The position numbers and the translations under genes are program-made. Shown here in pieces: positions 2,782 to 60,084 of a stretch of 64,000 bases of DNA. Every line of letters starts with the position of its first letter. Positions within the stretch are counted from its first letter, which is position 1. The stretch comes from an uncultured Bdellovibrionales bacterium (GTDB taxonomy: Bacteria > Bdellovibrionota > UBA1018 > CAIPTA01): contig CAZKBU010000003.1 in NCBI GenBank assembly GCA_964551325.1, positions 287,672 through 351,671 on the forward strand, given 5' to 3'. Below the pieces are notes generated by a model that had not been told where the DNA came from, searched no databases, and saw nothing but the letters and a program-made list of their open reading frames with translations.

Positions 2782-2798
2782 TTTTTTAGGAGCAAACG

Positions 2799-4891: not shown

Positions 4892-4906
4892 TTCTTCCCC
4901 CTTACG

Positions 4907-5119: not shown

Positions 5120-5269
5120 CTGAAAATCGGAAATTCTAAATCAATTTAAATAGTTAGTTGGAAAAACGCCGTTTGCTGTGGATCAGCTTTTCGTTGGCTA
5201 ATCTCGGGTTCTTGGTCTTTACGACACAATGTGTTAATTCCGGTCCATTCAAATTTGGAAGGGGATTTT

Positions 5270-5755: not shown

Positions 5756-5796
5756 GTCCGCTGCTCAGCATTGTCTGACAAAATTAATACGAAATG

Positions 5797-5831
5797 ACCC
5801 GGATAGAGTGCTTCTAGCCGGGTTTTTCTTT
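5797..5831 (+). terminator. weak candidate rho-independent terminator (acccgg-N13-ccgggt followed by TTTTTCTTT)
   Basis: 6-bp GC stem, 13-nt loop, T-run, immediately downstream of the 5270..5755 gene. Confidence 0.3.
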
Positions 5832-5886
5832 GCCCGCAGGGACCGTTTCTCTCAGGGTTTCACGGACTTGTTCCGATACGTTGGTG

Positions 5887-7929: not shown

Positions 7930-8890
7930 GCTGCTCTCGGTTGCCAGTATTTTCATCGCGTCGAGTGTCTGGGCAAGAGGATCCTCCTGTGCGGACCTCT
8001 ACGCCGAGCCGTCGGGCCTGGCAGTGGCGGCCGGTGACTTTGGGATCGGGCGATCCGCACTGATTCGCAAGGAAGTTCAGTCTATACGAGGATGGATTCA
8101 GGGAGAGGCCCGGGCGGTGGACGGCTTTGCGAGCCAGCTGCCGGAAACGGAAGTGGCCGTGAATCGGTTCCGCTTTGCGACCGGTCTCTACCGCGGCTCC
8201 CGAGACGTGGTTACGGTTCCGTCGCGAGCAATCGATTCGTGGGAGAAGATCGTCGGCCCGCAGTCGATCGAGGTTCTTTATGTGCCGGGAGCGGATGTAC
8301 CTTATCTCCCTGAGAAGGTGCGCCATGTGGGCCACATCGCGGTGAGGGTGGGCAACATGGTCTACCATCAAACCGGTGGATCCGGTTTCCGAAAGGAAAC
8401 TCTGCAGCAGTTCATTTTGGAAACGAAGGCGGATCACAAGGTCTATGGCACGGTGCTGAAGGCGTCGCCTCGGGAACGGGAGATCATGCGCCGGTATTTT
8501 GATGCGATGTTTGACAAGCAGGTGCCGTATTCGTTTCTCCTCAACAATTGTTCGGAAGCGGCCTGTCGGGCGATGAGCTATGCGGGAGTGATGAATTTGC
8601 CGCGGGCGGCGGGTCTCGATCCTTTCGTCATGAAGAAAATCGTGGCTCGCCGGAGCGACCGCGTGGTCGTGCGTACGGTTTACAACGCCGAAAAAGAAGG
8701 TGATTGGAGGGAGCTGCGAAACGCCGTACTCCGGAACCGGATGTTTTTTTACGGAGTTCCTGTCGGCGTAACGGGCGCTGCGGGAACGGGGTTGGGGTAT
8801 GGGATTTGGGAGGCTTCCGAGTTGCTCTCCGATTGGATTTCCGAAGTGAGGGATTCCATGGACGAAACCGGAGAAAACGCGGCGCGTTAA
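7919..8890 (+). CDS. secreted hypothetical protein (possible permuted papain-like/amidase fold; His...Cys order)
   Basis: signal peptide MWARLLSVASIFIASSVWA; the protein reads naturally, whereas the antisense 460-aa ORF is Arg/Pro junk; GHIAVRVGNMVYH and NNCSEAACRAM segments. Confidence 0.5.
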   Translation: MWARLLSVASIFIASSVWARGSSCADLYAEPSGLAVAAGDFGIGRSALIRKEVQSIRGWIQGEARAVDGFASQLPETEVAVNRFRFATGLYRGSRDVVTVPSRAIDSWEKIVGPQSIEVLYVPGADVPYLPEKVRHVGHIAVRVGNMVYHQTGGSGFRKETLQQFILETKADHKVYGTVLKASPREREIMRRYFDAMFDKQVPYSFLLNNCSEAACRAMSYAGVMNLPRAAGLDPFVMKKIVARRSDRVVVRTVYNAEKEGDWRELRNAVLRNRMFFYGVPVGVTGAAGTGLGYGIWEASELLSDWISEVRDSMDETGENAAR

Positions 8891-8939
8891 TCCGGTACCG
8901 TTCCTTGCGTTTGCCCGGCGCGAAAGATAAGTTCCGAGC

Positions 8940-9854
8940 ATGTCGGAAAACCTCACCCGTAAGCCGAAGCCTGAGTGGCTCAAAGTGCGCGCCCCCGGTG
9001 GGGAAAACTTTCTCAGAATCAAAGAGTTGATGCGCGAGCGACGACTCGCCACCGTTTGCGAAGAGGCCCGGTGTCCCAACATGGGAGAATGCTGGGGCGG
9101 TGGCACGGCTACGATCATGGTGATGGGCGACACCTGCACCCGGGGATGCCGTTTTTGCAACGTGAAGACCGCAAAATTTCCGGGCGCGCTGGATCCGGAC
9201 GAGCCAACGAACGTGGCCCGTCAACTGAAGGACATGGGGTTGGAATACGTGGTGATCACCACGGTGGACCGTGATGATTTGCCGGATCAAGGCGCGAATC
9301 ACTTTCGCCGAATCATCGAAGAAGTAAAAAAAGAGAATCCCCACCTTCGCGTGGAAACCCTGGCGGGAGATTTCCAGGGCAGAGAGGATCTGCTTTCCGT
9401 GTTTTTGGCCTGTGACGGACTCGATGTTTTTGCTCACAACATTGAAACCGTCGAACGGCTCACTCCGAAGGTGCGTGATCGACGGGCCGGCTATCGTCAG
9501 TCTCTTGAAGTGCTGGAGCGCGCCAAGCGGATGAAGCCGAACCTGATGACCAAGAGCTCCATCATGGTGGGACTGGGCGAGACGCCCGACGAGGTCATCT
9601 CCGCCATGAAGCACCTGCGAGAGGTGGAGGTAGACATCTTCACCTTGGGCCAATACCTCCAGCCCACTCAGCGTCACCTTCCGGTCACGGAGTTCATCAC
9701 GCCGGCACAGTTCGAAGAATACCGAAGAATCGGGATGGATCTCGGTTTCCGCTATGTAGCCAGCGGACCCCTCGTGCGAAGCTCTTATCGTGCCGGAGAA
9801 TTTTACATCAAAGCCTTGCTCGATGAGCGGGCCAGAAATCAGGAGACGAAGTAA
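8940..9854 (+). CDS. lipA: lipoyl synthase (radical SAM)
   Basis: 304 aa; CEEARCPNMGEC and CTRGCRFCNV cysteine clusters typical of LipA. Confidence 0.9.
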   Translation: MSENLTRKPKPEWLKVRAPGGENFLRIKELMRERRLATVCEEARCPNMGECWGGGTATIMVMGDTCTRGCRFCNVKTAKFPGALDPDEPTNVARQLKDMGLEYVVITTVDRDDLPDQGANHFRRIIEEVKKENPHLRVETLAGDFQGREDLLSVFLACDGLDVFAHNIETVERLTPKVRDRRAGYRQSLEVLERAKRMKPNLMTKSSIMVGLGETPDEVISAMKHLREVEVDIFTLGQYLQPTQRHLPVTEFITPAQFEEYRRIGMDLGFRYVASGPLVRSSYRAGEFYIKALLDERARNQETK

Positions 9855-11071
9855 TGGACCTCAAGCTTCCCGACCTCGGCGAAGGTGTACTCGAAGGTGA
9901 AATCGTAAAGTGGATGGTGAAGGCCGGCGACCAGGTGAAAGAAGACCAGGTTGTTGTGGAGGTCATGACCGACAAGGCCACGATGGAAATCCCCTCGAAA
10001 GGCAGCGGCGTGGTGGAGGCTCTTACCGCAAAAGAGGGCGAGATCGTAAAGGTCGGTCAGACCATCATGAAGCTGGTGGGCGGAGCTGGAGTACAGGCTC
10101 CTAAGGAAGCTCCTAAGGAGGCCCCCAAGACCGCTCCCGTAGCGGCGCCGAAGGCTGCTCCTGTTGCCGTTAATAGCAATGCGGATGTAGCCGCCTCTCC
10201 GGCCGTGCGAAAGCTCGCTCGTGAGGCCGGCGTAAATCTCGCTTCGCTTCGGGGCACGGGACCCAACGGCCGCATTCTTTTGGAAGACGTACAGCGAGGA
10301 CCGGGCTCCAGCGGCGGATCTCGCAATCGAGGTGTACGCGGTCAGCGCACCGAAGAGCGCGTTCCGGTTCGGGGCATGCGCCGAAAGATCATCGAGAAGA
10401 TGGCGCAGTCGAAGCGCACTGCCGCCCACTTCACCTATGTGGAAGAATGCGACATGACGGAGCTCAATGAGTTTCGTCAGAAGCTGAAGGGGGCCGCGGA
10501 AAAGCAAGGCACGAAGATCACCTTCATGCCGTTCATCGCGAAGGCTGCCTGCATTGCCCTCAAGGAGTTCCCGGAGCTGAACGCCCAGCTGATCGAAGAG
10601 AACGGCCAACCCACGGAGATCGTTTACAAGAAATACTACAACCTTGGCGTTGCCGTGGACACGGAAGAAGGTCTCACCGTACCGGTTCTTAAGGACGCCG
10701 ACTGTAAAGGCATCTGGGAGATTTCCCGTGAGATTTCTGATCTCGCCCAAAGAGCTCGCGATAAGAAACTCACGCCGGCTGATTTTCAGGAAGGCACCTT
10801 CACGATTACCAACGCGGGAAATATCGGCGGCCTGCTCGCCACTCCGGTGATCAACTATCCGGAAGTAGCCATCATGGGTGTGCACCAGATGAAAAAGCGC
10901 CCCGTGGTGATCGGCAACGAAATCAAGATTCGCGACATTATGTATCTCTCCGTATCGCTCGACCACCGCGTGGTCGATGGTGCAGTGGCCGCACGGTTCA
11001 TGAATCGAGTGGTCGGCCTCCTTCAGGATCCGAAAGTGATGCTGATGGAACTTTTGGGCGCTGATTTTTAA
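9854..11071 (+). CDS. dihydrolipoamide acyltransferase E2 (single lipoyl domain, AP-rich linker, catalytic domain)
   Basis: ATG overlaps the lipA stop (TAATG); lipoyl-lysine motif EVMTDKATMEIPS; APKEAPKEAPK linker; DHRVVDG catalytic His motif near the C-terminus. Confidence 0.9.
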   Translation: MDLKLPDLGEGVLEGEIVKWMVKAGDQVKEDQVVVEVMTDKATMEIPSKGSGVVEALTAKEGEIVKVGQTIMKLVGGAGVQAPKEAPKEAPKTAPVAAPKAAPVAVNSNADVAASPAVRKLAREAGVNLASLRGTGPNGRILLEDVQRGPGSSGGSRNRGVRGQRTEERVPVRGMRRKIIEKMAQSKRTAAHFTYVEECDMTELNEFRQKLKGAAEKQGTKITFMPFIAKAACIALKEFPELNAQLIEENGQPTEIVYKKYYNLGVAVDTEEGLTVPVLKDADCKGIWEISREISDLAQRARDKKLTPADFQEGTFTITNAGNIGGLLATPVINYPEVAIMGVHQMKKRPVVIGNEIKIRDIMYLSVSLDHRVVDGAVAARFMNRVVGLLQDPKVMLMELLGADF

Positions 11072-11083
11072 AAGGGAAGACAA

Positions 11084-12496
11084 GTGGAAACGAAGAAGTT
11101 TGATGCAGTAGTGATCGGTGCCGGACCCGGCGGTTATGTTTGTGCGATTCGCCTGGCTCAGTTAGGGAAGAAAACGGCGATCATCGAGCGCGATAATGTG
11201 GGCGGAGTGTGTCTCAACGTAGGCTGTATTCCCTCGAAGGCGCTGATCAAAGCCTCCACTATGTTTGAGAAAATGCAGAAGGCCTCCGACATGGGGTTTC
11301 AAGTCAAGGGCGTCGACGTCAACTTCGGCGCGCTCCAGGAGTGGAAACACGGAGTGGTCACGAAGCTCACCGGCGGAGTAGCCCAGCTTCTCAAGGGCAA
11401 CAAAGTGGAGATCATCAAGGGAGATGCGAAGTTCGTGGGCCCCAAGCAGATCGAAGTGACTTCGGGACCTGCAAAGATGGCCGTGCAGGCCGACCACATC
11501 GTGATCGCCGTGGGTTCCTCTCCGATCGAAATTCCCGGATTCAAGTTTGATGAGAAAAAGATTTTGTCCTCTACAGGCGCGCTCGCGATCGATAAACCCC
11601 TGAAGAGTGCCGTGGTGGTGGGAGCGGGCTACATCGGCCTGGAGCTCGGCACCTATCTTGCGAAGTTCGGCACCCAGGTGACCCTGATCGAGCAAGCGGA
11701 TCGCCTCCTTCCCGGTTATGACCCGGACGTAAGCCAGGTCATAACCCGCGGCCTCAAGAAGCGTAACGTGAATATCCTCACCAAGGCTTCCGCTAAGGGT
11801 GTGAAGGAAAAAGGTTCCGGCATGGTGGTGGAAGTGGAGGTCGACGGAAAACTCCAGCAGATCGAAGCAGAGAAGGTGCTGGTAACCGTAGGCCGTCGTC
11901 CGAACTCTATGCCGGGGATCGAAAAGGCGGGCATAAAAGTGGATCCGAAGGGATTCATCTCGGTAAACGACAAGCTGCAGACCAACGTTCCCGGCATTTA
12001 CGCCATCGGTGACGTGGCTGGTCAGCCGATGCTTGCCCACAAAGCTTCCAAAGAAGCGCTTGTGGTGGCGGAGGTGATCGCCGGTAAAAAGGGCGCGAAA
12101 TACGACGTTAAGGCCATGCCCGCGGTGATTTTCTGTGAGCCGGAAGTCAGCTCTGTGGGGCTCAACGAAACAGAAGCGAAGGCCAAGGGCATTACCCCCA
12201 TGGTGGGCTCCTTTCCGTTCGGCGCACTCGGCAAGGCGATTGCCTCCGGCGATACGGACGGCTTTGCAAAACTTATCGGCGACAAGAAGACCGGTCGACT
12301 GATCGGGGCCGTGATCGTGGGCGCCGAGTCGAGCTCGATGATTGCGGAGATGGCGCTCGCCATTGAAGCGGGCTTGCAGGTGGAAGACGTTGCCCTTACC
12401 GTGCACGCGCATCCTACGATGGGCGAGGCCACGATGGAGGCTGCGGAAGTGGCTCTCGGACACGCCGTGCACATTCTCCAGAAGGGCGTGCACTGA
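11084..12496 (+). CDS. lpd: dihydrolipoyl dehydrogenase E3
   Basis: GTG start; 470 aa; GAGPGG FAD motif and redox-active GGVCLNVGCIPSK disulfide motif. Confidence 0.9.
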   Translation: METKKFDAVVIGAGPGGYVCAIRLAQLGKKTAIIERDNVGGVCLNVGCIPSKALIKASTMFEKMQKASDMGFQVKGVDVNFGALQEWKHGVVTKLTGGVAQLLKGNKVEIIKGDAKFVGPKQIEVTSGPAKMAVQADHIVIAVGSSPIEIPGFKFDEKKILSSTGALAIDKPLKSAVVVGAGYIGLELGTYLAKFGTQVTLIEQADRLLPGYDPDVSQVITRGLKKRNVNILTKASAKGVKEKGSGMVVEVEVDGKLQQIEAEKVLVTVGRRPNSMPGIEKAGIKVDPKGFISVNDKLQTNVPGIYAIGDVAGQPMLAHKASKEALVVAEVIAGKKGAKYDVKAMPAVIFCEPEVSSVGLNETEAKAKGITPMVGSFPFGALGKAIASGDTDGFAKLIGDKKTGRLIGAVIVGAESSSMIAEMALAIEAGLQVEDVALTVHAHPTMGEATMEAAEVALGHAVHILQKGVH

Positions 12497-12498
12497 GC

Positions 12499-13149
12499 GT
12501 GGAGCGGATCCGAAACCTCGGCCGAGTTTCCTACGCGGAGGCGTGGGAGATTCAGCGCGAGCTTTTGGAGAAGCGGGCGCTCGGCGAGATCCCCGACACG
12601 CTTTTGATTCTTGAGCACCCCCATGTGATCACTCTCGGTAGAAAAACGCCTGGTGTAAGAGAGCTCGAAGAAAGCGGACAGAAGGAATGGCAGGGTGTGC
12701 CGCTCTACTTTGTAGAGCGAGGCGGAGAGGCCACTTATCACGGGCCAGGACAGATCGTGATGTATCCCATTTTTGAGCTCAGCGGGTCCTTTGGTCCTAA
12801 ACAATTTCTACGATTGATGGAACTCGCGATGGTGGAGCTGCTCAAAGAGTTTTCGATTGAGGCGTGGGCCTTGGAAGGGAAAACCGGGGTGTGGCTGAAG
12901 GACGCCCTCGGACGGGAGCGAAAAATCGCCTCGTTAGGGATCGCCGTGCGGAAGAATGTCAGCTGGCACGGGCTTGCCTTCAACGTAAATACGGACCTCT
13001 CCTATTTTAGAAAAATTTCTCCCTGTGGATTTTCTCCGGAGGTGATGACTTCGCTCGAAGAGCTTACGGGGCGGGCTGTTGATCAGAGCGCCACGGCCAC
13101 CCGTCTTGCCCAACTGCTTTTGGACCGCTTTCAAAGGGAGCGTAAGTGA
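12499..13149 (+). CDS. lipB: octanoyl-(ACP):protein N-octanoyltransferase
   Basis: GTG start; 216 aa; HPHVITLGRK and GxxxYHGPGQ motifs characteristic of LipB. Confidence 0.8.
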   Translation: MERIRNLGRVSYAEAWEIQRELLEKRALGEIPDTLLILEHPHVITLGRKTPGVRELEESGQKEWQGVPLYFVERGGEATYHGPGQIVMYPIFELSGSFGPKQFLRLMELAMVELLKEFSIEAWALEGKTGVWLKDALGRERKIASLGIAVRKNVSWHGLAFNVNTDLSYFRKISPCGFSPEVMTSLEELTGRAVDQSATATRLAQLLLDRFQRERK

Positions 13150-13847
13150 AATTTCCCGGGCCTCTTGTGGAGGCAAAATTTCTGCGAAGGGAAAAAAGAT
13201 TTTTTGCCTACTGTGAGGCGTCGGATGGCGCGGAGCTAGTGGCCCACTGCCCTAACCCGGGCTCCATGAAGGGTAATCGCGAGCCAGGAAGCCGAATGTG
13301 GCTCCTCGACTTTGGTTCAAGTCATCCGGGGAGGAAACTGCGTTACAAGTGGGTTTATGTCGAGAGCCAGGGCGTGAGAGTTTGTGTCGACACGAGTGTT
13401 GCCAACTCCGTGGTGGAAGAGGCTCTCCGGGAGGGCCGGGTTTCGGAAGTCAGTGACTGGCGCGAGGTGAAACCGGAAGCCACCGTGGGAGAGTCGAGAT
13501 TCGACTTTCTCTTGTCTGGTCCCGGACTTCCCGATTGTTTTCTTGAAGTGAAGAGCGTGTCGATGGGGGAAGGGAAGCAGGGTGCTTTCCCCGACTCCGT
13601 AACGGAGCGCGGACAGAAGCATCTCAGGCACCTCATGGATCTTCGCCGGACGGGAAAGCGAGCGATTCTATTCTTTTTGCTCATGCGTGAGGGAGGGAAG
13701 GAAGTGCGACCGGCGGGGGAAATCGATCCGGAATACGAGCGACTCCTGCGAGAGGCCGTAGAGACTGGAGTGGAAGTGCTAGTCTACGGCACACGCTTCG
13801 ACGCTCAAGGGATTTCTCTCGGAGAAAAAGGTACACTGGTGCTCTGA
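13146..13847 (+). CDS. sfsA: sugar fermentation stimulation protein SfsA family
   Basis: GTG start overlapping the lipB stop; 233-aa SfsA-like sequence (AHCPNPGSM, LEVKSV). Confidence 0.65.
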   Translation: MKFPGPLVEAKFLRREKRFFAYCEASDGAELVAHCPNPGSMKGNREPGSRMWLLDFGSSHPGRKLRYKWVYVESQGVRVCVDTSVANSVVEEALREGRVSEVSDWREVKPEATVGESRFDFLLSGPGLPDCFLEVKSVSMGEGKQGAFPDSVTERGQKHLRHLMDLRRTGKRAILFFLLMREGGKEVRPAGEIDPEYERLLREAVETGVEVLVYGTRFDAQGISLGEKGTLVL

Positions 13848-14806
13848 TGAATGCTTTGGCCAAAGAATTTTTGCCCCGCCTGGATCGCCTTTTTCACGAA
13901 GTGGTGCAGAAGGATCTGCGGGAGTCGCCGCTGAGAGAGATGCTTGAGTTCCAGTGGAAGAGCGGTGGCAAGAGGCTTCGCCCGCTCTGCGTAGCGATGG
14001 CGGCGGGAGAGGCGCGACATTCTGATCTAGCCCTTCGTTTTGCTCTTGCCGTGGAGATGATCCACAACGCCACTCTCATCCATGACGACATTCAAGACGG
14101 CGACACTCACCGCCGCGGCCAGCCCACGCTATGGAAAAAATACGGCCTCGCGCACGGCATCAATGCAGGTGACGCTCTTTTTTTTCTGCCCCAGGTGATT
14201 CTCGGGGTCGATCCGGGCGCGCTGCCGCTCCTCCGCCTACTGCATCGCTGCACCTTGGCGGTGATCGAAGGCCAGTGCCTAGAGGTGGATCTTCGGGAGC
14301 GGTTCGCTCGCGGAGAAGAGTTTGCCGTGGCCGACTACGAAAAAATGGTGGCCGGAAAAACTTCTGCACTTTTTCGCATGCCGGTAGAGGGCGGGAAGAT
14401 GCTGGCAGGTGAATCGCTGTCTCAGGATGAGGAGAAAGCGCTGGAGGCTCTCGGCCTTGCGTTTCAGATTCAAGACGACATGCTCGATCTCTGGGGCGAA
14501 AAGGGCCGTGACCGGCGGGGGAGCGACATTGCGGAAGGCAAGCTGAGCTACCCTGTGGTGGAGGGCTTGCGACTGTTAGAAGGCCCCGGGCGCCGGGAGT
14601 TCGTGAGAATCGTTACTGCGCCGAGAGAAGAAACCACACAGGCAGAGGTGGAGTGGGTGATCGATGCGTTGGAGCGCTGTGGGGCGAGGGATCATTCTCT
14701 GATTAAATTTCAAGGGCTGTCAGCCTGTCTGAAATCAAACCAGCAGGAGCGCCCTCTTTTTCAAATGATACTTTCATTGGGTAAAGTGAATTTTAGTCGA
14801 AATTAA
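13847..14806 (+). CDS. polyprenyl (geranylgeranyl/farnesyl) diphosphate synthase; last ~35 codons lie in low-GC DNA
   Basis: FARM motif DDIQDGD and second DDMLD motif; the C-terminal tail is encoded by AT-rich sequence continuous with the downstream low-GC island. Confidence 0.8.
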   Translation: MNALAKEFLPRLDRLFHEVVQKDLRESPLREMLEFQWKSGGKRLRPLCVAMAAGEARHSDLALRFALAVEMIHNATLIHDDIQDGDTHRRGQPTLWKKYGLAHGINAGDALFFLPQVILGVDPGALPLLRLLHRCTLAVIEGQCLEVDLRERFARGEEFAVADYEKMVAGKTSALFRMPVEGGKMLAGESLSQDEEKALEALGLAFQIQDDMLDLWGEKGRDRRGSDIAEGKLSYPVVEGLRLLEGPGRREFVRIVTAPREETTQAEVEWVIDALERCGARDHSLIKFQGLSACLKSNQQERPLFQMILSLGKVNFSRN

Positions 14807-14828
14807 ATGTCTAGTGAGCGGTCAAATT

Positions 14829-16496
14829 CTATAAATGCGTTGAACCAGATAAAAATTCATTCCAAATCTCCTTTAGAGCGTGATCCGATCGAATATTTTT
14901 CTTTAACAGGAAGTCATTTCGCCATGCGGGGCCGAATTGCATTAGTGCCTCGTTAAAACTACTGGAGGTTTGGGTGCTTCTAATCATTATGACTGAATTG
15001 CCGTCTGCGTTTTTAGAAAAAAATTCCCCAAGGTATTCATCGAGACTCTCACTTGGAGAGAGTTCAGATTTTTGGTCATGAAAGTAGCAAACATGTGAGT
15101 TGTCTGCGGACCTCCAAAGTCTCGAATTGTGAGCAGCAAGGTTTTGGCCAGTTGGCCCCCAGTAGTAGCTCTGAACATAGTGATTGGAGCACGGAAACAA
15201 CACAAATAGGTGGGGAACACCCCCATCTTTTTTTGCTAATTGGAAGGAAGAGTACAAGTGTGAAAATTGATGTGGAGGGAACGTCCATGTCCCTCCCATG
15301 TTCAACAGCTTAATGGTAAATAAAATTGCCCCAACCACTATCAGTGATAGTCGAATGCGTGACCAGCGCGGATTCGAAACTCTGATGCTGGTAACTAAAA
15401 CTAGAAATACTGCAATTACCCCAAAGAATGGCGTGTGATACCGAGGGCTATACGGATAGGTAGAAAATGTCCTTAGAAAAAAAAACAATGCGAAAACCAC
15501 TGAAATTAAAAAAACAAATCGGGCCACCCGCTCAGAATCGGAAGTTTTTACGGACGACCTCAATGAGACAGCTAAAAGTCCAGATCCCATGAGAACTAGC
15601 CATATCGGCAGGTCCCAGTATCGGAAATAGGAAAGTATGATTGGAATAACTTCAGAGAGAAGGGTTAAGGATTGAACCTTTTCCCATCGAAAACTTACAG
15701 GAGTAGGTAGTCCCATATAGTAGCTGTTCATTGCATAGGAGACGGCCACCAAAGACAGTGAGAGAAAAAAGTAACCCACCCGTGCTCCAGATCGGAGCTG
15801 TTCTCTCGCGATAGCAGATCGCAAAAAGTTATATACCGCTCCTGCTACAACGATAGGGACCGCAAAATAGTGTGTTCCACAAAAAAGAGCTCCAATCAGA
15901 GCCTGCCAGCCTTCGCTCTTGTGCCAAAATACAAAGCTCAAACACCAGATTAGGGATAACAAGGACGTTAAGGAATAGTGTCGTGCCTCTGCAGAGTAGT
16001 ATACCTCACCACCATGTCCTGAAATCCAGGCAGTCAAAAGTAAAGTGCAGATCAATGCAGTGAGACTAGAGTCCCGCCTCGAAAAATGACGCCAGCAAAA
16101 ATATGAAAATACAGAAACAGTGATGCAACTATAGAAGAGAGATGGAGCTCGAAGGGCGAGCTCGGACGTACCAGTGAGTGGGAACCAAAAATACTTTCTA
16201 AGTAGATAGTCCATTGCAGGCTGAATGGATGCCGCGGTCGTGGAAAAGAGCGCAACCAGTCCGTCAAATCCGCTCACATGAACGAGGTCTGCGTTGTGCA
16301 TTAGTTCATCCGACCAGAACTCACGATAGAGTTGTCCAATTCTGGGGCGCAGTGCGATCAAAAAAACGGAAAAAACTGCAAAGAAATATGCGAGTTTTGG
16401 CATTGTCGAGAAAAAAAGGTTAGCAGAAAAAAGTAGGCGAACATTTTGAAACCGAAGGTAAAATAAGACACTTTTCATTAAAACCAATTGTGCCAA
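14829..16496 (-). CDS. polytopic membrane protein, GT-C/ArnT-PMT-like glycosyltransferase (inferred)
   Basis: 555 aa; >10 predicted TM helices plus a C-terminal soluble region; low-GC island; paralogous architecture to 17930..19657 and 58207..60084. Confidence 0.4.
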   Translation of the reverse strand: MAQLVLMKSVLFYLRFQNVRLLFSANLFFSTMPKLAYFFAVFSVFLIALRPRIGQLYREFWSDELMHNADLVHVSGFDGLVALFSTTAASIQPAMDYLLRKYFWFPLTGTSELALRAPSLFYSCITVSVFSYFCWRHFSRRDSSLTALICTLLLTAWISGHGGEVYYSAEARHYSLTSLLSLIWCLSFVFWHKSEGWQALIGALFCGTHYFAVPIVVAGAVYNFLRSAIAREQLRSGARVGYFFLSLSLVAVSYAMNSYYMGLPTPVSFRWEKVQSLTLLSEVIPIILSYFRYWDLPIWLVLMGSGLLAVSLRSSVKTSDSERVARFVFLISVVFALFFFLRTFSTYPYSPRYHTPFFGVIAVFLVLVTSIRVSNPRWSRIRLSLIVVGAILFTIKLLNMGGTWTFPPHQFSHLYSSFQLAKKDGGVPHLFVLFPCSNHYVQSYYWGPTGQNLAAHNSRLWRSADNSHVCYFHDQKSELSPSESLDEYLGEFFSKNADGNSVIMIRSTQTSSSFNEALMQFGPAWRNDFLLKKNIRSDHALKEIWNEFLSGSTHL

Positions 16497-16538
16497 ATGA
16501 GTTTCGTGCTAAGCAATGGGCACAATACCCAAATCATC

Positions 16539-17933
16539 TCAATTTCTACACCGAAGGCTTCGGGACAGCTCCGATTGGGAAAGTATCAGTCTTGAAATAT
16601 TTGATGCGATTACCTCATTTCCCGCCTTTGTCAGGTGGCCGAATGTGCCACCAAAACGATCATAAAAGAACGTCGAGTAATTGCTTATATTAAGGGATTT
16701 CTCAAAGCCCGCCTTGTTTTCTAGTAGCCAAATCTTGTCGCCTTGAAGAATAGGGATCATCTGCCTAATTAGTTCGATGGGGCGGTTCGGATACTGCATG
16801 ACGATCAAATTGATGTTCGCGTCTCGCGTCAACTTCGAGATTGCCCGGTAGTTAGATATACTGGCCGGGATCGACTCAAATATGGGGAGGTCGGGTGGGG
16901 TGCTTCGGGGCGATCGACTATTTTTTGTTGAAAGCAAAAGACCTTGGATTTTTGCATCATGAGGGTAACGTTTCGCTGCTTTAATTAATAACCTCCTGGC
17001 ATCAGCAATACGGGAATGGGAAATCATTAGGTCGGCAAAGAGATGGATATTGTTTGGGGTTGTCTCTAGGTTTTCTAAAATACCATTGAAATCTTTCCAC
17101 CTGGCGTCCAATGCATAGTCGACAGCTAGTTCATAGAGGAACCAATTTTTTTCGCCAGGGTCAATCACTGAATTAAGGGCTAGATTGTGGAGTCGGATGG
17201 ACTCCCTATAGTTCATTTCTGTCCGGTATAGATTGGCGAGACCGAGCAATGCCCATGGATGCTCTGGAAACGCTCTTAGCGCCTTCATGTGAATCTGTTT
17301 TGAGTATTCGTGATCACCCAGATTAGTAAGTGGTTGAGTGACCAGCAGCGCAAAATTCTTGTCGTTTAGCGTTCGTCCTGCGATCATCTCATCAATAATT
17401 TGACTTGGCTTTACTCGTTGTTCTGCCTTCAATCTCCTGTTTTTTAGTTCTAATTTTGCCCAAAGGAAGAGTTTAAAGAGTTTTAAGGGCTTCGGACGAG
17501 ATAGCTCAATCGTTTCGGCGTTTGGAGTTGGTTTGTCGGTGGACGGGGCGGCAAGGGTATCATCGTTTATTCCCATCATCGTAATAATAAGCCGAGGCGC
17601 GAATTGAGAAATTTGAGCAGGGAGAGATTCTAAGATTATGCGGGTGTTTGTACCGGCCACCCCAAGGTTTATTACTTCGATATTTGGATTACACTTTTCA
17701 TTGAGAATTTTTTGCAAAATATTTGGATAGTTCCTGTCAGGATCTATTCCCCCAGATCCCTGAGTGGTTGACTCTCCAATCGCTAAAATTCGAATTGTAT
17801 TCTCGTTTCGATTAAGTGGCTGCTTTTGGAGCGCGAGCAATATACCGGCCGACACTCTTAAAAATAATTCGAGTGAAAGTAGAAACGTGAGCACAAATAG
17901 AGCTGAGTTGATTGCGTATTTTCTTAATCTCAC
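16539..17933 (-). CDS. TM-anchored SGNH/GDSL-family hydrolase with C-terminal TPR repeats
   Basis: N-terminal TM anchor; block I ILAIGESTTQGSGG, block II NLGVAGTN, block III MMGINDD; TPR-like helical repeats at the C-terminus; low GC. Confidence 0.5.
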   Translation of the reverse strand: MRLRKYAINSALFVLTFLLSLELFLRVSAGILLALQKQPLNRNENTIRILAIGESTTQGSGGIDPDRNYPNILQKILNEKCNPNIEVINLGVAGTNTRIILESLPAQISQFAPRLIITMMGINDDTLAAPSTDKPTPNAETIELSRPKPLKLFKLFLWAKLELKNRRLKAEQRVKPSQIIDEMIAGRTLNDKNFALLVTQPLTNLGDHEYSKQIHMKALRAFPEHPWALLGLANLYRTEMNYRESIRLHNLALNSVIDPGEKNWFLYELAVDYALDARWKDFNGILENLETTPNNIHLFADLMISHSRIADARRLLIKAAKRYPHDAKIQGLLLSTKNSRSPRSTPPDLPIFESIPASISNYRAISKLTRDANINLIVMQYPNRPIELIRQMIPILQGDKIWLLENKAGFEKSLNISNYSTFFYDRFGGTFGHLTKAGNEVIASNISRLILSQSELSRSLRCRN

Positions 17934-19657
17934 CTTTGGGCCTTATGTATTATTAAATAGTAGTATTGGTTTCCATCAATGTTGGGTCCGATAGTTTCTT
18001 TTATGGTCCAAAAAGTTCCATTTAGTTTCTGTTCTCGTTTTAGATCTAGAGACTTTCGGCCGTTCTGATCTATGAGAATTCTGTTAATGTTTGGATTGGC
18101 TCCGAGCAGTGTGGCCGGGAGGCTCGAATGCGGATTGCTTTTCCATTGACTGACTGCGTGCCAAATTGGAAGAGCGGACCTCCATTTAAACAGTTTTTTC
18201 TCTACTAGATGGCTATCAAGGACTGTCATCATAAAGTTAAATGAGTCGTCGAGATTTACGATCGCAATTGTGAGCGATTCGATTGGTGATTCGTGTTCAG
18301 TCAAAAACTTGATAAGTGTGGGATTTTTAGTCGGTTCTGGAAATCGCCAGTATCCGTTACTGCCGACTAATAATTTTGGATACCTATACAAGAAATTGGA
18401 AAACGGAGTAGAGATGAACGCAAGAGGCAAAATGGAAGTTAAAACAAGGGAGGCAATTAAGATCGGTGACTTCAGTCGCAGGCGTGACCTTGCTGTGCCG
18501 ATCCAAGCACTGGCAAGAATCAAAAAGAGCTCTCCAGTCATAAAGCGAGCAAAAGCTAATGACGTATCACGATTTGGGATAAGGCCGATTAACCCGGCCA
18601 CCGCAGCGGCCGAAATCAACGGGGTGAGGGTCCAGGATATGTTAGCCCTTAGGGGGCTTCGAATCGCGGCAAAGCTTGAAGCCAGAAGTGGGCCGATGCC
18701 CTTCCAGCCAACTAGGAATGAAAGAGCAATTGCGCAAAATGTTATGCCCCCCGTAGGGGAGCTAAGGGCGTTTTTTATGAAATCTAATTTTCTAGAACCA
18801 GAAGATCCCTCGGCCCAAAGCCAAGCTCGATTGCCAAACCAACTAAACCACACCCATGTTAAGAGGGTGTACGTAGAGAAGCTTATCAGCCACATGCTGG
18901 TGGTTCGGTCGCGTTTTAACGATAGGGCGGCGAGTCCTCCGATCAGAATGGATGCTAGAAGTATCCATTCTGAAGATTGAGACGACAGTTTGAAAAAAAA
19001 AATAAATGTAGCAGATGCGAGTATTGAAATGAGGTGCACCGATTGGCGGTGAATTATGGTTAGAAAGAAAAAATATACAAATGAAGTGATTCCGATCAGC
19101 CTTGCCGCTTCAAATGGGCGGAAGAACCCAGACACTCCGAGAAGCGCGCCAGCCAAGACCCAGCGCCTTGAAATTAGGGCCCAAAGAGACCAGGGAAGAA
19201 GGGCGAGGAAGCCGGGTTCTGAATAGAAGCCAATTAGAGATCGAAAAAGCGTTGGATCTAGGGCGAGCCAAATTAGAAATCCGCAAGATTGAGTGCGAGT
19301 TAATTTCATTGCCCGTCCGAGAGCCAAGCATCCGATCCAAAAAGTCAGAGCCGAACCGAAGGAGTATATAAACTTTGATTGGAGTACCGATAGTTTTAAC
19401 CCTCCAATTAAAAACAAAGCAATAAATGAGACCGCGCTTGCTCGCCCGCCGATTATCTTATTGGGGTCTTTGACGAAATCGGAAAGCGGCTGAGAATCCT
19501 GGACAAAACGAATTGACCCGTGGATGAATTCTGCGTCATCTGAAATGACTAAAGCAGAGCCGGAGTGGTGCCAAGTAAGATAGTTGATGACGCAGATTCC
19601 GATGGAGGTCGCGATCAGGGTGATTGAGCCAAGCCAAGATGCCCTCAAAGAATTCAC
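17930..19657 (-). CDS. polytopic membrane protein, GT-C-like (inferred), second copy in island
   Basis: 575 aa; many TM helices plus a C-terminal ~170-aa soluble domain; stop/start overlap with neighbouring genes suggests one operon. Confidence 0.4.
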   Translation of the reverse strand: MNSLRASWLGSITLIATSIGICVINYLTWHHSGSALVISDDAEFIHGSIRFVQDSQPLSDFVKDPNKIIGGRASAVSFIALFLIGGLKLSVLQSKFIYSFGSALTFWIGCLALGRAMKLTRTQSCGFLIWLALDPTLFRSLIGFYSEPGFLALLPWSLWALISRRWVLAGALLGVSGFFRPFEAARLIGITSFVYFFFLTIIHRQSVHLISILASATFIFFFKLSSQSSEWILLASILIGGLAALSLKRDRTTSMWLISFSTYTLLTWVWFSWFGNRAWLWAEGSSGSRKLDFIKNALSSPTGGITFCAIALSFLVGWKGIGPLLASSFAAIRSPLRANISWTLTPLISAAAVAGLIGLIPNRDTSLAFARFMTGELFLILASAWIGTARSRLRLKSPILIASLVLTSILPLAFISTPFSNFLYRYPKLLVGSNGYWRFPEPTKNPTLIKFLTEHESPIESLTIAIVNLDDSFNFMMTVLDSHLVEKKLFKWRSALPIWHAVSQWKSNPHSSLPATLLGANPNINRILIDQNGRKSLDLKREQKLNGTFWTIKETIGPNIDGNQYYYLIIHKAQR

Positions 19658-20580
19658 TTGCCCACCGTCACTCGATTCCTCCCCGCCTTCTTCGAGTCAT
19701 ACAAAGCGTTATCTGCCTCGCGGATCAGGTCGGGCGTGGAATGATGGTCTTTCTTTAGGGAAGCTACGCCCATGCTCGCCGTAACGGGAATCTGTTTTCC
19801 GTCAAACACAAAGGCTTGCTCTTCGATCTTTTTGCGCAGGCGCTCAGCCACATCCTGGGCCTTTTCAAGGTCACTGTCGTTGAGAATCACAAGAAACTCT
19901 TCGCCACCCCAGCGGCCCACCATGTCGCGCTCGCGGAGCCCGGCATTTTTCAAAAGCAAACCAAGCTGCGACAGCACATAGTCGCCGCCGTTGTGTCCCG
20001 AAGTGTCGTTGATCTTTTTGAAGTGATCGATATCCAGCATGATCACCGAAAAGTGGGAGTGCAGCGCCTTGGCTCGCTTGAATTCGGCCTCTAGTACGTC
20101 GCCGAAATAGTTCCGATTGAATACCCCGGTAAGTTTGTCGATGGAGGCAGCGTCGGTTTGGCGCGCGTGAAAAAGTGTTTCGAGCTCACCGGCAGGAAGA
20201 TATTTTAGAATCGTGCTGCCCACTTTGATCATGTCTTCTTTGGCGAGCTTTCGTGAGCCGTGGAGCTGATCATCGTTCACGAAGGTGCCATTTCGGGAGC
20301 CGGCGTCTTCGATGGTATGTCCGGTGCCGCTTCGGGAGATTTTGGCGTGCCGTCGGGAAATGTTCGGATCGCTTACAATCAGGTCGGCGCTCTTGTCGCG
20401 GCCGAGATACAACTCGTCGCGATCAAGAGTGAACTTGGATCCTTGAGGAGTCCCGCGAATGATGATGAGAATCGCGTTTTCCGCCTTCGCTTTTTCCCGG
20501 TCGAGTTTGAGAAGGTCGGTGTCGGGGTTGAGAACCCGCGTGGTGTCGTTGCTGTCTATTTTTTTTGAGTCACCGGCCAT
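19654..20580 (-). CDS. FHA domain - GGDEF diguanylate cyclase
   Basis: N-terminal FHA pattern (YLGRDKSADLIVSDPNISRRHAKI); GGDEF domain with RWGGEEF active-site motif. Confidence 0.8.
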   Translation of the reverse strand: MAGDSKKIDSNDTTRVLNPDTDLLKLDREKAKAENAILIIIRGTPQGSKFTLDRDELYLGRDKSADLIVSDPNISRRHAKISRSGTGHTIEDAGSRNGTFVNDDQLHGSRKLAKEDMIKVGSTILKYLPAGELETLFHARQTDAASIDKLTGVFNRNYFGDVLEAEFKRAKALHSHFSVIMLDIDHFKKINDTSGHNGGDYVLSQLGLLLKNAGLRERDMVGRWGGEEFLVILNDSDLEKAQDVAERLRKKIEEQAFVFDGKQIPVTASMGVASLKKDHHSTPDLIREADNALYDSKKAGRNRVTVGK

Positions 20581-20589: not shown

Positions 20590-21540
20590 TTATCTTCGCC
20601 TCTTTCGGGAAGCAAAACCCTCTAGGAAAGCCAGGGCGCAGCGCGCCACGAGTGCGGCAGTTTGATCGTCGCGGTCTACGGCTGGATTCAGCTCGTAGAT
20701 CCCAAAGCTCAACACGCCAGCGTGGGCGCCGGAGATGCGCGAGAAGGCGATTGCCTCCGCTCCTTTGAAACCAGTGGTTTGGGGGGCGCTTACTCCAGGG
20801 GCTTCCGACCACTGAACGCTATCGATGTCGAGGCTTACCTGGAGCGGTGCGGATCTTCCCAGCATTGCTATGCGGCGCCGAAAAGCGGCTTCGGGGCGAG
20901 CCATTTTTTCGAAAAAGTCTACGCTGATTTTTCTTTGTTTTGTCCAGGTAAAGAGGTCCGACGTGTTGGCGTTGCGCTGGATGCCGAACTCATAAATTCT
21001 GGATCGGGAGGCCTGGAAGCTCTTCGACTCTGCGAGCATGTACCAGGGGCTGCCGCTCGTGATTCCGTGGGTGGTGGGGCGAACGTCGAGGTGAGCGTCG
21101 ATATTGAGAAAGTTCGCTGGTTTCCCGCCCAAACTATCGAGAAGAGAGGTTGCCTCGGGAAAGGCTAAGTCGTGCCCGCCGCCGATCACCAGGGGAATCA
21201 ATTTCGCCCTCCTCACGGCAAGGAGCAGCTCGTGGGCGCGGGAGTGGGTGTCGGCAGGATCCGAGCCCCCGGGCACGTCGCCCAGGTCGTAGATTGGAAA
21301 CGTAAACTCGGTCGAGGCAAGACGATAGAATTTTTTTCGGAAGGCCGCCGGCCCCTGGGCGGCACCGGGGCGTCCTCCCACATTTTTCACGCCGGCGTCG
21401 CAAGCTAAACCAACAATCGCGATACCTGGTTTCAGGTGAGAAAGATTCGTGGGTGTTGCTGATGCTACGAAGGATCCGACTCTACCAGTGCTTCCGGACG
21501 AAGGTAGAAAGTCTCCTGGTCGATAAGAAATAATTTTCAT
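20590..21540 (-). CDS. arginase/ureohydrolase-family enzyme (formiminoglutamase/agmatinase-like)
   Basis: IGGGHDLAF, NIDAHLDV and SLDIDSV, the three Mn-binding signature segments of the arginase family. Confidence 0.6.
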   Translation of the reverse strand: MKIISYRPGDFLPSSGSTGRVGSFVASATPTNLSHLKPGIAIVGLACDAGVKNVGGRPGAAQGPAAFRKKFYRLASTEFTFPIYDLGDVPGGSDPADTHSRAHELLLAVRRAKLIPLVIGGGHDLAFPEATSLLDSLGGKPANFLNIDAHLDVRPTTHGITSGSPWYMLAESKSFQASRSRIYEFGIQRNANTSDLFTWTKQRKISVDFFEKMARPEAAFRRRIAMLGRSAPLQVSLDIDSVQWSEAPGVSAPQTTGFKGAEAIAFSRISGAHAGVLSFGIYELNPAVDRDDQTAALVARCALAFLEGFASRKRRR

Positions 21541-58206: not shown

Positions 58207-60084
58207 ATGACTTCAACCAACAAGCTCGATTTTTCCGTGTGGGCTGAAGTTTGGATTGGCCGCACGAAGTTTACGGTGTTCGGCCTTTTTTCGCTCGGCC
58301 TTCTTCTCCATTGGGTTCTAGGCGGAAAATTTCACTGGCTTGCCTTGTATTGTTCTCTGGGTTTCATGGCAGCTGCGTGGGGGAGCTGGCCCAGAGAGGG
58401 CGTGGCCACGTCAAAGTTTCTCCCGTGGGTTACTCTATGTTTGGTTTTGGTCGCGGGGGGAATCCACTTTGAAGATTTGGCCCAACGTCCGATCTGGAGT
58501 GACGAAGATTTGCAGGTGGGGCCGTTGTTATTTGGTGCTTCTGGAGTGGAGGCTGCCACAAACGTGATGCAACCGCCCCTGTTTCACGAAATTTCTGGAC
58601 TAAGCATGCGGTTGCTGGGGCCGTCTTCCTTTTCCGCAAGGCTAGTGTCTTGGTTTGCGGGCACAGTCAGTGTCGGCATAACGTGGTTGATCGCATTGTC
58701 TTTGGGGGCGCCTTGGTGGTTTGCGCTGTCGGCTGCTACCGCTGTTTTGGGCAATAATTTGTTGATTTCATATTCTCAAGAGGCGAAACCAATCGCATTA
58801 GGATTCTTGTTTTCTCTTTTTTTCCTTCACTCGCTGCTCTCTCGAAAGTCGGTGAAATCGTTTAGCGCAGCCAGTTCCACATTTGCCTTACAGGCGGCTA
58901 TTGGTTTCCAGGGGCCCATTCTGGCCGTTCTTCTGGGCGCGCTTCGCAGAAATAAGGGCGTTCTGATTGGTCTTCTGTGGAGTGCCCCATTTTTTTTGCA
59001 GATTGTCGGTGGTCCTCAAACACGAACCTTTGTAGAGCTTCTTTCACCGGCCGGACTGTTGGCGCGGTGGAATATGATGATCGAAGCGCTCAGTCGACAG
59101 ATTCCAGAAACGTATTCGGGATCTGAATATATTTTTCTTTATATTCTCGGCTTAGAGATGGCGCGATGGTTGGGTAGGCTGAAAATTCCTTCCTTACTCC
59201 CCGTAGTCATTACCCCTCTGTGCCTCTTGGTGGGGCACTTCCTTTTTGTGAACAATGTGTTCGCCTTACGCTATGGCATCGTGGTGATACCCGTTGCTGT
59301 GCTGTGGCTGGTGTATGCTCTTGCGCATAGTCGCTCTATGAAAATGACTGTGCTGCAGGGGATTGCCTCTGTTTGTCTGATTTTTTGGGGAGTAACTTCC
59401 TGGACATTAAAACGCGATAAAATTTATGAGTATCGGGGTCGTGAAACCATCCAATACGCAAACAGCCTTCAGTCGAAAGTGAAAAATCCTGTATTGGTGT
59501 TTCAATTCACTTTCAATCCACCGAAGTCCTCCGAGTCTACTGGGTTGCCGACCACTCGACTTTTGGATTCAAATGGTTTTCCGTCTTCGTTCAAGTATTT
59601 TGATCTATGGGAAACCAAGGAATATCAAAGTGAGATCATTGGGCGTTTGGCTAGGGAAAATCCCGATGCCCGCCGAGCGTTGATTCTTATGCCGCGATCA
59701 ATTTCAAAGGTTTCCCATGAGTTCTGGAGTACTAAAACTATCCCGGGTGTGAAAGTCGAGAATGTGGTGGTGCTCGACTCGCACATGCCCCGAGACGCCA
59801 CGGATCTGATTGATGTCACTTGGACCGGGGCGCCTACAGACGGTCTATCCCGACTCTTTCACAGCATGGACACCTTAATGGCGGATGAGCACCTAAAGCT
59901 CAACCTTCGATTGGTACTTGTGGCTTTAGCACTTAATTCGGGTGATTGCGGGACAGTGAGCAGGGAATGGCAAAGGCTTTTAGCGTTTCTCAAGTTTACC
60001 GGGCAGGATGGCCATCTCAGTATGCGTGTATTTAATACGGAGAGAGAGAAGTTGTGCAGGACGGGAGCCTTCGCGTCGCAGTAA
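58207..60084 (+). CDS. polytopic membrane protein, GT-C/ArnT-PMT-like (inferred)
   Basis: 625 aa; ~11 TM helices in the N-terminal two thirds, soluble C-terminal third; similar architecture to the two island-encoded proteins. Confidence 0.35.
   Translation: MTSTNKLDFSVWAEVWIGRTKFTVFGLFSLGLLLHWVLGGKFHWLALYCSLGFMAAAWGSWPREGVATSKFLPWVTLCLVLVAGGIHFEDLAQRPIWSDEDLQVGPLLFGASGVEAATNVMQPPLFHEISGLSMRLLGPSSFSARLVSWFAGTVSVGITWLIALSLGAPWWFALSAATAVLGNNLLISYSQEAKPIALGFLFSLFFLHSLLSRKSVKSFSAASSTFALQAAIGFQGPILAVLLGALRRNKGVLIGLLWSAPFFLQIVGGPQTRTFVELLSPAGLLARWNMMIEALSRQIPETYSGSEYIFLYILGLEMARWLGRLKIPSLLPVVITPLCLLVGHFLFVNNVFALRYGIVVIPVAVLWLVYALAHSRSMKMTVLQGIASVCLIFWGVTSWTLKRDKIYEYRGRETIQYANSLQSKVKNPVLVFQFTFNPPKSSESTGLPTTRLLDSNGFPSSFKYFDLWETKEYQSEIIGRLARENPDARRALILMPRSISKVSHEFWSTKTIPGVKVENVVVLDSHMPRDATDLIDVTWTGAPTDGLSRLFHSMDTLMADEHLKLNLRLVLVALALNSGDCGTVSREWQRLLAFLKFTGQDGHLSMRVFNTEREKLCRTGAFASQ

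Follow-up and report, generated by a model that had tools for sequence, protein, structure and literature searches.

A horizontally acquired AT-rich block with putative envelope-glycan genes at the replaced 3' end of a polyprenyl diphosphate synthase gene in an uncultured Bdellovibrionales bacterium

Organization and composition of the locus

The DNA analysed here (hereafter the window) is a stretch of 64,000 nucleotides (nt) of contig CAZKBU010000003.1 (positions 287,672 to 351,671 of the forward strand) in assembly GCA_964551325.1 of an uncultured Bdellovibrionales bacterium. In this window, the open reading frame (ORF) of a trans-polyprenyl diphosphate synthase (13847-14806, plus strand) converges on a minus-strand gene encoding a protein with FHA and GGDEF domains (19654..20580). 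About 5 kb of foreign, AT-rich DNA has been acquired horizontally at this synthase/FHA-GGDEF convergent junction. The low-GC (guanine plus cytosine) inserted DNA, or island, spans approximately 4.96 kb (14692..19653), from a homology breakpoint within the synthase gene to the stop codon of the FHA-GGDEF gene, and it carries three minus-strand genes, A (14829..16496), B (16539..17933) and C (17930..19657).

The GC content of the window falls from approximately 0.57 to 0.44 between 14692 and approximately 19655. In 1-kb bins, it was 0.42-0.46 at 15-19 kb and 0.51-0.61 in the rest of the window, and in 200-nt windows it was 0.625 at 14500-14699 and 0.365 at 14700-14899, returning to 0.51-0.55 at approximately 19.5-19.7 kb. 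The GC content at third codon positions (GC3) was 0.432, 0.452 and 0.470 in the three island genes and 0.51-0.73 in the other plausible genes of the window (0.58-0.73 in nearly all of them; host value approximately 0.63). Because GC3 is also low in the island genes, the low GC content does not stem from hydrophobic amino acid content. A 121-aa ORF at 4273-4638, which is probably spurious, showed a GC3 of 0.36, lower than that of the island genes. The tetranucleotide usage of the island correlated with that of the rest of the window at 0.234 (raw) and 0.707 (GC-normalized), versus 0.94 ± 0.019 and 0.938 ± 0.013, respectively, for background 5-kb windows, and the GC-normalized signature of the island lay more than 17 standard deviations (SD) away from the rest of the window. 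The binned GC, GC3 and tetranucleotide statistics thus confirm the GC fall at approximately 14.7-19.66 kb that had been described in an earlier sequence-only reading of the window, and composition, together with the absence of the genes from syntenic relatives described below, supports the horizontal acquisition proposed there. The junctions were identical in independent assemblies from other sequencing runs, with both junctions present in L001 and the left junction only in L002, L004 and L094, so that an assembly artefact is excluded. The only strain variant found, sought in order to estimate selection on gene A, was 99.98% identical.

From first to last, the minus-strand genes run as a string through an arginase-family gene (20590..21540; PF00491, E 9e-40), the FHA-GGDEF gene, C, B and A. 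The arginase-family and FHA-GGDEF genes are native, and the latter lies directly upstream of the island genes. This ORF layout agrees with the single minus-strand string, continuing from the FHA-GGDEF gene, that had been noted previously. The accompanying claim that the island genes overlap stop to start held for FHA-GGDEF/C and C/B, each with a 4-nt overlap, and failed for B/A, which are separated by at least 42-60 nt, according to the start assumed for A. The start codon of C is a GTG within the overlap with the FHA-GGDEF stop codon (GTGA). Gene A encodes 555 aa from a TTG start, but translation more likely begins at an ATG, either that at 16478 (giving 549 aa, as annotated in public assemblies) or that at 16403. 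A terminator and promoter scan detected no excess over shuffled sequence, and RNA folding 3' of gene A gave z = -0.9. From the 4-nt overlaps and the lack of excess promoter and terminator signals, we infer that A, B and C may be expressed by read-through from the arginase-family/FHA-GGDEF unit.

The FHA-GGDEF protein contains an N-terminal Pfam FHA domain and a C-terminal GGDEF domain, and its C-terminus is intact compared with those of L005 and L006. Its best PDB match (E 1.5e-55, residues 39-306) was 6HBZ, which is full-length Bdellovibrio bacteriovorus DgcB (Bd0742), a diguanylate cyclase reported to govern the start of prey invasion (PMC6733907). On this similarity, the FHA-GGDEF gene is predicted to encode a full-length DgcB homologue with diguanylate cyclase activity. 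The pair of arginase-family and FHA-GGDEF genes is kept in all relatives examined.

Dedicated scans bore out the previously noted absence of an integrase, a tRNA and flanking direct repeats. There was no tRNA and no Rfam match in the 64-kb window, and no integrase among the neighbours LipB, SfsA, the synthase, the FHA-GGDEF gene and the arginase-family gene. The best boundary-spanning direct repeat was 19 nt at 74% identity, which is at chance level. In phage, plasmid and viral-contig collections, no match was found to the island DNA or to the A, B and C proteins, and A and C matched none of the PADLOC defence models. An 18-nt inverted repeat (14676-14693 / 18804-18821, 16/18 complementary) has one arm over the 14691 breakpoint and the other inside gene C; it is probably coincidental, as a rough count gives approximately 0.3 such pairs expected by chance in 5.5 kb.

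The replaced synthase C-terminus and the junction in relatives

Relatives were collected by scanning species-representative genomes with the synthase protein, which retrieved metagenome-assembled genomes of Bdellovibrionota at approximately 51% identity, and a protein search retrieved the synthase of a much closer relative, P0002 (85% identity; NCBI GCA_013359435.1), hereafter the sister lineage. In blastn, positions 10440-14691 of the window aligned with positions 1-4227 of L085, the contig of the closest relative, at 78.6% identity, and the alignment ended at 14691. In a direct alignment to L085, 49/52 positions were identical just before the breakpoint, and identity was at random level after it. 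Position 14692 is the first base of codon 282 of the synthase gene, 9 codons past the end of the Pfam domain, and the breakpoint coincides with the GC collapse. The synthase gene is thus divided into a native body of codons 1-281 (13847..14691, plus strand), which holds the whole Pfam domain (PF00348, residues 29-273, profile positions 4-249 of 251, E 4.9e-53) and both DDxxD motifs (DDIQD and DDMLD), and a foreign tail of 38 codons and the stop codon (14692..14806, plus strand) encoded by island DNA. The GC content is 0.371 in the tail versus 0.596 in the body, and the GC3 of L085 is approximately 0.55 after the breakpoint and 0.72-0.76 before it.

The replaced C-terminus was compared with that of the synthase family. 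Approximately 100 relatives of 325-345 aa (norm 338-339 aa) share a strongly conserved tail, ...DFxxHLKEARTxSLWEEVxxYLAGWLEEKVxGF. The synthase of the window has 319 aa; the tail therefore leaves the protein shorter than the norm, rather than extending it beyond the usual length as had been supposed. A hidden Markov model (HMM) was built from the conserved family tail, and scores were compared with those of 2000 shuffles. The 38-residue tail of the window scored -1.7 bits, with 854/2000 shuffles as good or better, and the 33-residue tail of the sister P0002 scored 0.2 bits, with 616/2000 shuffles as good or better. The tail of the window showed no homology to that of the sister, and no remnant of the old synthase tail was detected in any frame of 14600-19900. 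The conserved tail of approximately 57 residues has thus been lost and replaced by 38 island-encoded codons up to the first stop. Because a stop-free run of 38 codons in island DNA is unremarkable (P ~0.13), read-through into the insert adequately explains the new tail. Two other origins were considered and rejected: the tail as a diverged homologue of the family tail, to which its similar length and an F-Q match had pointed, was ruled out by the HMM-versus-shuffle test, and derivation of the island from a low-GC relative of identical synteny through homologous replacement within the synthase did not agree with the lack of synthase-tail similarity in the tail.

The ratio of nonsynonymous to synonymous substitution rates (dN/dS) versus L085 was 0.058 for synthase codons 1-281, 0.044 for LipB and 0.070 for SfsA, and dS between the synthases of the window and the sister was approximately 1.3. 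On these values, the catalytic body of the synthase is clearly intact, still functional and under strong purifying selection. It appears to be a trans-type short-chain enzyme resembling geranylgeranyl diphosphate (GGPP) and farnesyl diphosphate (FPP) synthases; its best NCBIfam matches were IdsA and FPP- and GGPP-synthase-like models, all under the cut-off, and product chain length is not assigned. A short-chain trans synthase of this type does not itself make the undecaprenyl carrier. Because unrelated cargo occupies the junction in other relatives, we read the location of the synthase beside putative glycan genes as a positional, not a functional, neighbourhood.

The flanks of the junction have a conserved order among relatives, with LipB-(SfsA)-synthase converging on the FHA-GGDEF and arginase-family genes, and GYF and PilZ genes lying beyond. 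In L005, L088 and L089, the synthase gene directly abuts or overlaps the FHA-GGDEF gene, with no cargo. The junction contains one HD_5 gene in L087, two unrelated genes in L006, a single 587-aa gene without a Pfam hit and close in size to A and C in the contig of P0006 (GCA_041443045.1), and an AT3-fused SGNH acyltransferase gene with low GC3 in L085. The inserts in L087 and L006 showed host-like GC3. No homologue of A, B or C was detected by tblastn at the syntenic loci of relatives; syntenic relatives carrying these genes with a normal GC content, which would have indicated native genes, were thus not found, supporting acquisition. The GC contents of the syntenic Bdellovibrionota contigs L005, L088, L089, L087, L006 and L085 ranged from 0.45 to 0.60, so donors with an island-like GC content (approximately 0.44-0.47) are in principle possible within the broad clade.

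In the sister lineage, the break lies at the same place, but the tail and the cargo differ. The simplest history is that a single old insertion truncated the synthase gene in the common ancestor and that the cargo was later turned over; independent site-specific events at the shared breakpoint are less likely. Given a shared breakpoint with different cargo, the tail was probably lost before A, B and C arrived, or independently of them. The sequence-only reading, in which insertion of the island replaced the native C-terminus of the synthase, is therefore borne out in regard to the replacement, given that homology ends at 14691 together with the GC drop and that the tail is unlike the family tail, but probably not in tying this loss to the three genes now present.

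Predicted products of the island genes and their homologues

Gene A encodes a polytopic membrane protein. A crude hydropathy scan of A and C counted 6-10 hydrophobic segments, along with a soluble tail of approximately 150 aa. Neither A, C and the protein encoded at 58207-60084, nor the homologues P0122, P0124 and L090:12450-14048, matched any Pfam (E<=10) or NCBIfam (E<=1) family, and a sequence search found no PDB relative of A, C or the 58207-60084 protein. The search for GT39/GT83-type families that had been suggested for A and C thus gave no direct Pfam or NCBIfam match. Gene A had one non-self match among 5.8 billion clustered proteins. Its homologues are L090:12450-14048 (532 aa; 33% identity over 498 aa, E 3.7e-73) and P0122 (28%), and a metagenome scan with the A-family alignment retrieved two loci, L092, a low-GC contig (0.43) with an A-like fragment that is 38% identical over residues 52-225, and L093. 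The protein L093:3873-5354 (493 aa), whose gene adjoins that of a family 2 glycosyltransferase (GT2), passes the Pfam thresholds of PMT_2 (41.6 vs 26.1) and PMT (25.6 vs 22.7).

In hhalign, the A-family profile matched L093:3873-5354 at 96.7% (E 3.4e-10, 173 columns). Three motifs of the A family were aligned with those of the L093 protein, namely W-x-D-E with LWLDEA, F-W-F-P-L-x-G-x-S-E-x-x-L-R with LFGYSEIALR, and Y-Y-S-x-E-A-R-H-Y with YYSQEARMY. The acidic W-x-D-E motif, with the D63-E64 pair of gene A (16305..16310, minus strand), is located in the loop after the first transmembrane (TM) helix, and W61-x-D63-E64 is invariant in four proteins (A, L090:12450-14048, P0122 and the 58207-60084 protein). 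An Escherichia coli ArnT sequence, which scores 211 bits to PMT and so belongs to the PMT family, aligned weakly with A (E 0.0016), its D31-E32 being in exact register with D63-E64. An AlphaFold2 model of A built from a 2-sequence alignment had a mean predicted local distance difference test (pLDDT) value of 37.9. These profile and motif comparisons lead us to predict that gene A encodes a very divergent PMT_2/ArnT-type enzyme of the glycosyltransferase C (GT-C) class, missed by current HMMs, and the GT2 neighbours of its homologues suggest that it would use a polyprenyl-phosphate-sugar donor.

Gene C encodes a 575-aa polytopic membrane protein of a near-orphan family. A word-indexed search of 5.8 billion proteins detected no homologue, and when 1.84 billion representatives were scanned in full with HMMER, 3 non-self matches were obtained. 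A conserved I-S-D-D-A-E motif (residues 38-43) follows the first TM helix and aligned to no known family, and the single-sequence AlphaFold2 model of C had a mean pLDDT of 39.5. In hhalign, the C family was unrelated to the A family, C scored 0.1% each versus the L093 PMT_2 protein, ArnT and a DUF2079 protein, and the C family scored 0.2% versus the Wzy_C protein from L093. Comparisons with MBOAT and with the unclassified proteins of L090 and L086 gave no link, except for a profile link of 80% to P0126 (unclassified, 368 aa) and a weak match (E 0.02) to the 507-aa protein of L090. Gene C is thus a member of an undescribed, unclassified membrane family, for which architecture, the loop motif and genomic company are only suggestive of GT-C membership. 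The earlier description of two GT-C-like proteins in the island consequently stands for A, through its profile link to PMT_2, and does not stand for C, which has no tie to any GT-C family.

Gene B encodes a 464-aa protein with a single N-terminal TM segment (residues 17-35). It matched Pfam Lipase_GDSL_2 at 43.9 bits (cut-off 32.9) and Lipase_GDSL at 30.0 bits (cut-off 23.6), over profile positions 1-83 of 178 only, and TPR_19 marginally, at 25.8 bits versus a cut-off of 25. SGNH blocks I-III (GESTT 53-57, GVAG 91-94 and GIND 121-124) aligned with PDB 9otv, and the match to lysophospholipase L1-like esterases had an E-value of 2.5e-5. Consensus tetratricopeptide repeat (TPR) chains in PDB matched residues 205-259 (E 1.4e-6), and an insert of approximately 230 aa that contains the TPR, probably with 1-3 repeats, splits the SGNH part. 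A candidate block V is FGHLT (residues 431-435, with His 433), which lacks the Asp that usually stands 3 residues ahead of the His. According to the positive-inside rule, a periplasmic location of the domain is probable. The Pfam and PDB matches and the one TM segment agree with the TM-anchored SGNH/TPR protein recognized in the sequence-only reading.

Homologues of both A and C occur together in L090 (Logan ERR650993 contig, 1-14048), from an unrelated high-GC bacterium. The locus of P0124, the C homologue, contains genes for LpxB, LpxK, a lipid A acyltransferase, a DUF3108 protein, a GT9 heptosyltransferase, a GT4 protein and the 507-aa polytopic protein, which has no family assignment. Next come two genes of opposite orientation, one for a 286-aa protein and one for an MBOAT protein, and then the C-like gene, a gene for a 247-aa GT2 and the A-like gene. 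No similarity was detected between gene B and the 286-aa 'GDSTT' protein encoded beside the MBOAT gene. The genes of this locus, including the A- and C-like ones, have a native, host-like GC content, indicating that the A and C families are not intrinsically AT-rich. The best NCBIfam matches of the L090 GT2 were polyprenyl-phosphate-sugar synthases (dolichyl-phosphate hexose transferase, AglJ, PpgS and ArnC), all under the cut-off. Occurrence of A and C homologues beside a GT2 in a lipid A/core locus suggests a possible role in periplasmic modification of lipopolysaccharide (LPS) or another glycan.

The GT2 gene of L090 sits between the C-like and A-like genes, which is the place of gene B in the window; by tblastn, there was no GT2 in the 64-kb window. 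The genome encoding P0122 also has, at a locus different from that of P0122 (L086, JGI 3300082978 contig, 1145-5094), genes for a DUF2079 protein, a GT2 that is 79% identical to the L090 GT2, and a 468-aa protein weakly matching the LA_3751/3752 putative glycosyltransferase family.

A third membrane-protein gene (58207..60084, plus strand; 625 aa, polytopic) lies elsewhere in the window. In hhalign, its product matched the A family at 58-66% (E 5e-5 to 1e-4) over the region of W-x-DE and Y-S-x-E-A-[RK], and BLASTP detected no similarity among A, C and this protein. The gene is thus a probable distant paralogue of A. It had been described as a GT-C-like gene in normal-GC DNA; its DNA is instead mildly low in GC (GC 0.499, GC3 0.535), making it the lowest-GC gene outside the island, and it may represent a second, older single-gene insertion. 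It is embedded in a purine-catabolism cluster with xanthine dehydrogenase subunits (53212-56990), a PuuD-type urate oxidase (57038-58183) and a fusion gene (60098-63979, minus strand). In the 1293-aa fusion product, a malate-synthase-like TIM barrel and C-domain are joined to an OHCU decarboxylase, a beta-lactamase-like domain and two allantoicase repeats, which is unusual for ureide-pathway enzymes. Elsewhere in the window, a 699-aa ORF (5830-7929, plus strand) has host-like composition and no Pfam family at E<=1e-5.

Origin and proposed working of the cargo

The data show that a block of foreign DNA was acquired at the junction and that the synthase lost its conserved tail there, and we consider the explanation as a whole, in which the cargo would serve envelope-glycan modification and the junction would be a site of variable cassettes, to be probable. 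We suggest the following working of the cargo. With a polyprenyl-phosphate sugar as donor, the gene A product would glycosylate an acceptor at the periplasmic face, for which lipid A/core or a different envelope glycan is the likeliest candidate. The gene C product would be a second transferase, a polymerase or a translocase in the same pathway, and that of gene B would O-acylate or O-deacylate the glycan product. Because there is no GT2 in the island or the window, the GT2 that forms the donor would have to be encoded elsewhere in the genome. The string of cargo genes would be attached to the end of the arginase-family/dgcB-like transcription unit, and cargo may be swapped by recombination in the conserved flanks, not by a dedicated integrase. 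Since the sister has different low-GC cargo (an AT3-SGNH O-acyltransferase) at the same breakpoint, we infer that the locus behaves as a small variable surface-glycan cassette site.

Several points weigh against this explanation. In regard to origin, the nearest A homologues are 33-38% identical; L092, with its low GC content of 0.43 and 38% identity over residues 52-225, is too distant to be the donor. Furthermore, the sister contig stops 600 bp past the breakpoint, so that the sister cargo is seen in part. In regard to function, the link of A to GT-C consists of one intermediate protein and a 3-sequence profile, the pattern with which the intermediate L093 protein had been picked up included W-x-DE, the AlphaFold models of A and C, with pLDDT values of 38-40, are unusable for judging the fold, and no structural or HMM evidence puts C in any enzyme class. 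The island contains neither a GT2 nor a flippase and is thus not a self-sufficient pathway. The acceptor is putative, as is co-transcription of the cargo with the dgcB-like gene.

Other explanations account for part of the data. The genes might be native and only AT-biased, through AT-coded residues in membrane proteins or weak expression, with no insertion at all; this would fit the lower GC content of membrane proteins at first and second codon positions and the somewhat low GC of the A-like gene at 58207-60084. However, GC3 is 0.43-0.47 in the island genes versus approximately 0.63 in the host, the GC-normalized tetranucleotide signature deviates by more than 17 SD, A, B and C are absent from every syntenic relative examined, homology to the sister ends at a single nucleotide, and the L090 homologues have host-like GC, making this explanation highly improbable. 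Shared use of one breakpoint nucleotide by two lineages with different cargo, with both cargos consisting of putative glycan-modification genes as in seroconversion modules, could also point to the remnant of a serotype-converting prophage or mobile element of the gtr/oac type with its attachment site in the 3' end of the synthase gene. We regard such an element as quite improbable, though less so than native AT bias. No integrase, tRNA or flanking repeat was found at the locus, the phage, plasmid and viral-contig collections gave no match, and neither GtrA nor GtrB is present; in addition, the other relatives with inserts at the junction keep the full synthase tail and have different breakpoints, and a single ancestral event with cargo turnover is a simpler account of the shared breakpoint.

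An O-antigen- or capsule-type variable locus, with C as a Wzy-like polymerase or WaaL-like ligase and A as its partner, deserves more weight than a prophage remnant, and is still unlikely. Wzy and WaaL proteins are divergent, low-GC and polytopic, and often lack detectable homologues, as expected for the near-orphan C, and such a role is in line with the sister genome having other cargo at this site and with the C homologue lying within an LPS core locus. However, C and P0124 have no Wzy_C match, with hhalign giving 0.2% to the L093 Wzy_C protein, and the island lacks Wzx, an initiating transferase and sugar-nucleotide genes. Furthermore, the C-like gene of L090 is paired with a polyprenyl-phosphate-sugar-synthase-like GT2, which is a better fit to modification of the GT-C type. 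Within the favoured explanation of an acquired envelope-glycan cassette, a bolder version can be formulated, in which A and C constitute an undescribed two-membrane-protein envelope glycosylation system that was captured without its GT2 as a mobile cassette on the dgcB operon, bringing a change of surface glycan into the DgcB regulon; this version is tentative, and we rate it as rather unlikely. More speculative still is the idea that synthase codon 282 is a dedicated cassette-exchange site.

The locus overturns no existing concept, and its value lies mainly in annotation and in a glycobiology lead in a poorly studied phylum. To a specialist, it is a fairly ordinary small island and not surprising; the leads are the A-C pairing, the conserved intragenic breakpoint and the linkage to dgcB. 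A conserved C-terminal segment of the synthase can be overwritten while the enzyme stays under strong purifying selection. Two very rare membrane families, A and C, travel together, in a context that points to LPS/core modification with polyprenyl-phosphate sugars. Should the cargo and the DgcB-like cyclase be expressed together, the arrangement may link cyclic di-GMP signalling to envelope decoration in Bdellovibrionota.

GT-C enzymes of the ArnT/PMT_2 type (PF13231 and PF02366; CAZy GT83 and GT39) transfer sugars from polyprenyl phosphates to lipid A or proteins at the periplasmic face. Gene A shares with them the N-terminal catalytic region, the D-E pair of the first loop, the Y-Y-S-x-E-A-R segment, the polytopic architecture with a C-terminal soluble domain of approximately 150 aa and, through its homologues, a position beside GT2 genes; its spacing from the D-E pair to the G-x-x-E/N-x-x-x-R segment equals that of E. 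coli ArnT. Unlike these enzymes, it falls under all Pfam and NCBIfam thresholds, has no PDB relative and belongs to a family with a handful of members in billions of proteins. Gene B resembles periplasmic SGNH enzymes (Ape1, PatB, the OatA C-domain, AlgJ/AlgX and TesA-like lysophospholipase L1) in blocks I-III and in its signal-anchor, and it differs from them in the TPR insert of approximately 230 aa that splits the fold, in a block V whose Asp is not evident and in having no MBOAT or AT3 partner in the island.

Seroconversion modules comprise the gtrABC glucosylation clusters and the oac/OafA AT3-SGNH O-acetyltransferases of Shigella and Salmonella. As in these modules, the locus holds a small, low-GC, exchanged cassette with a polytopic GT-C-type and/or SGNH-type acyl enzyme, and relatives have different cassettes at one chromosomal site, the sister cargo being an AT3-fused SGNH gene. 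In contrast to gtr clusters, none of the three island genes is a GtrA-like ORF and the window has no GtrB-type GT2; in contrast to both gtr and oac modules, there is no association with a phage, integrase or tRNA, and the insertion lies inside a coding region, not beside a tRNA gene. The locus resembles classical genomic islands in its atypical composition, in being present in some relatives and absent from others and in its accessory cargo related to the cell surface, but it lacks an integrase, tRNA and repeats, measures only 5 kb and occupies a convergent-gene junction that was hit independently in several lineages. The locus is thus neither a member of the gtr family nor a classical integrase-borne island, and it provides a clean, well-bounded example of a convergent-gene junction as a recurrent landing pad for putative surface-glycan genes without an integrase.

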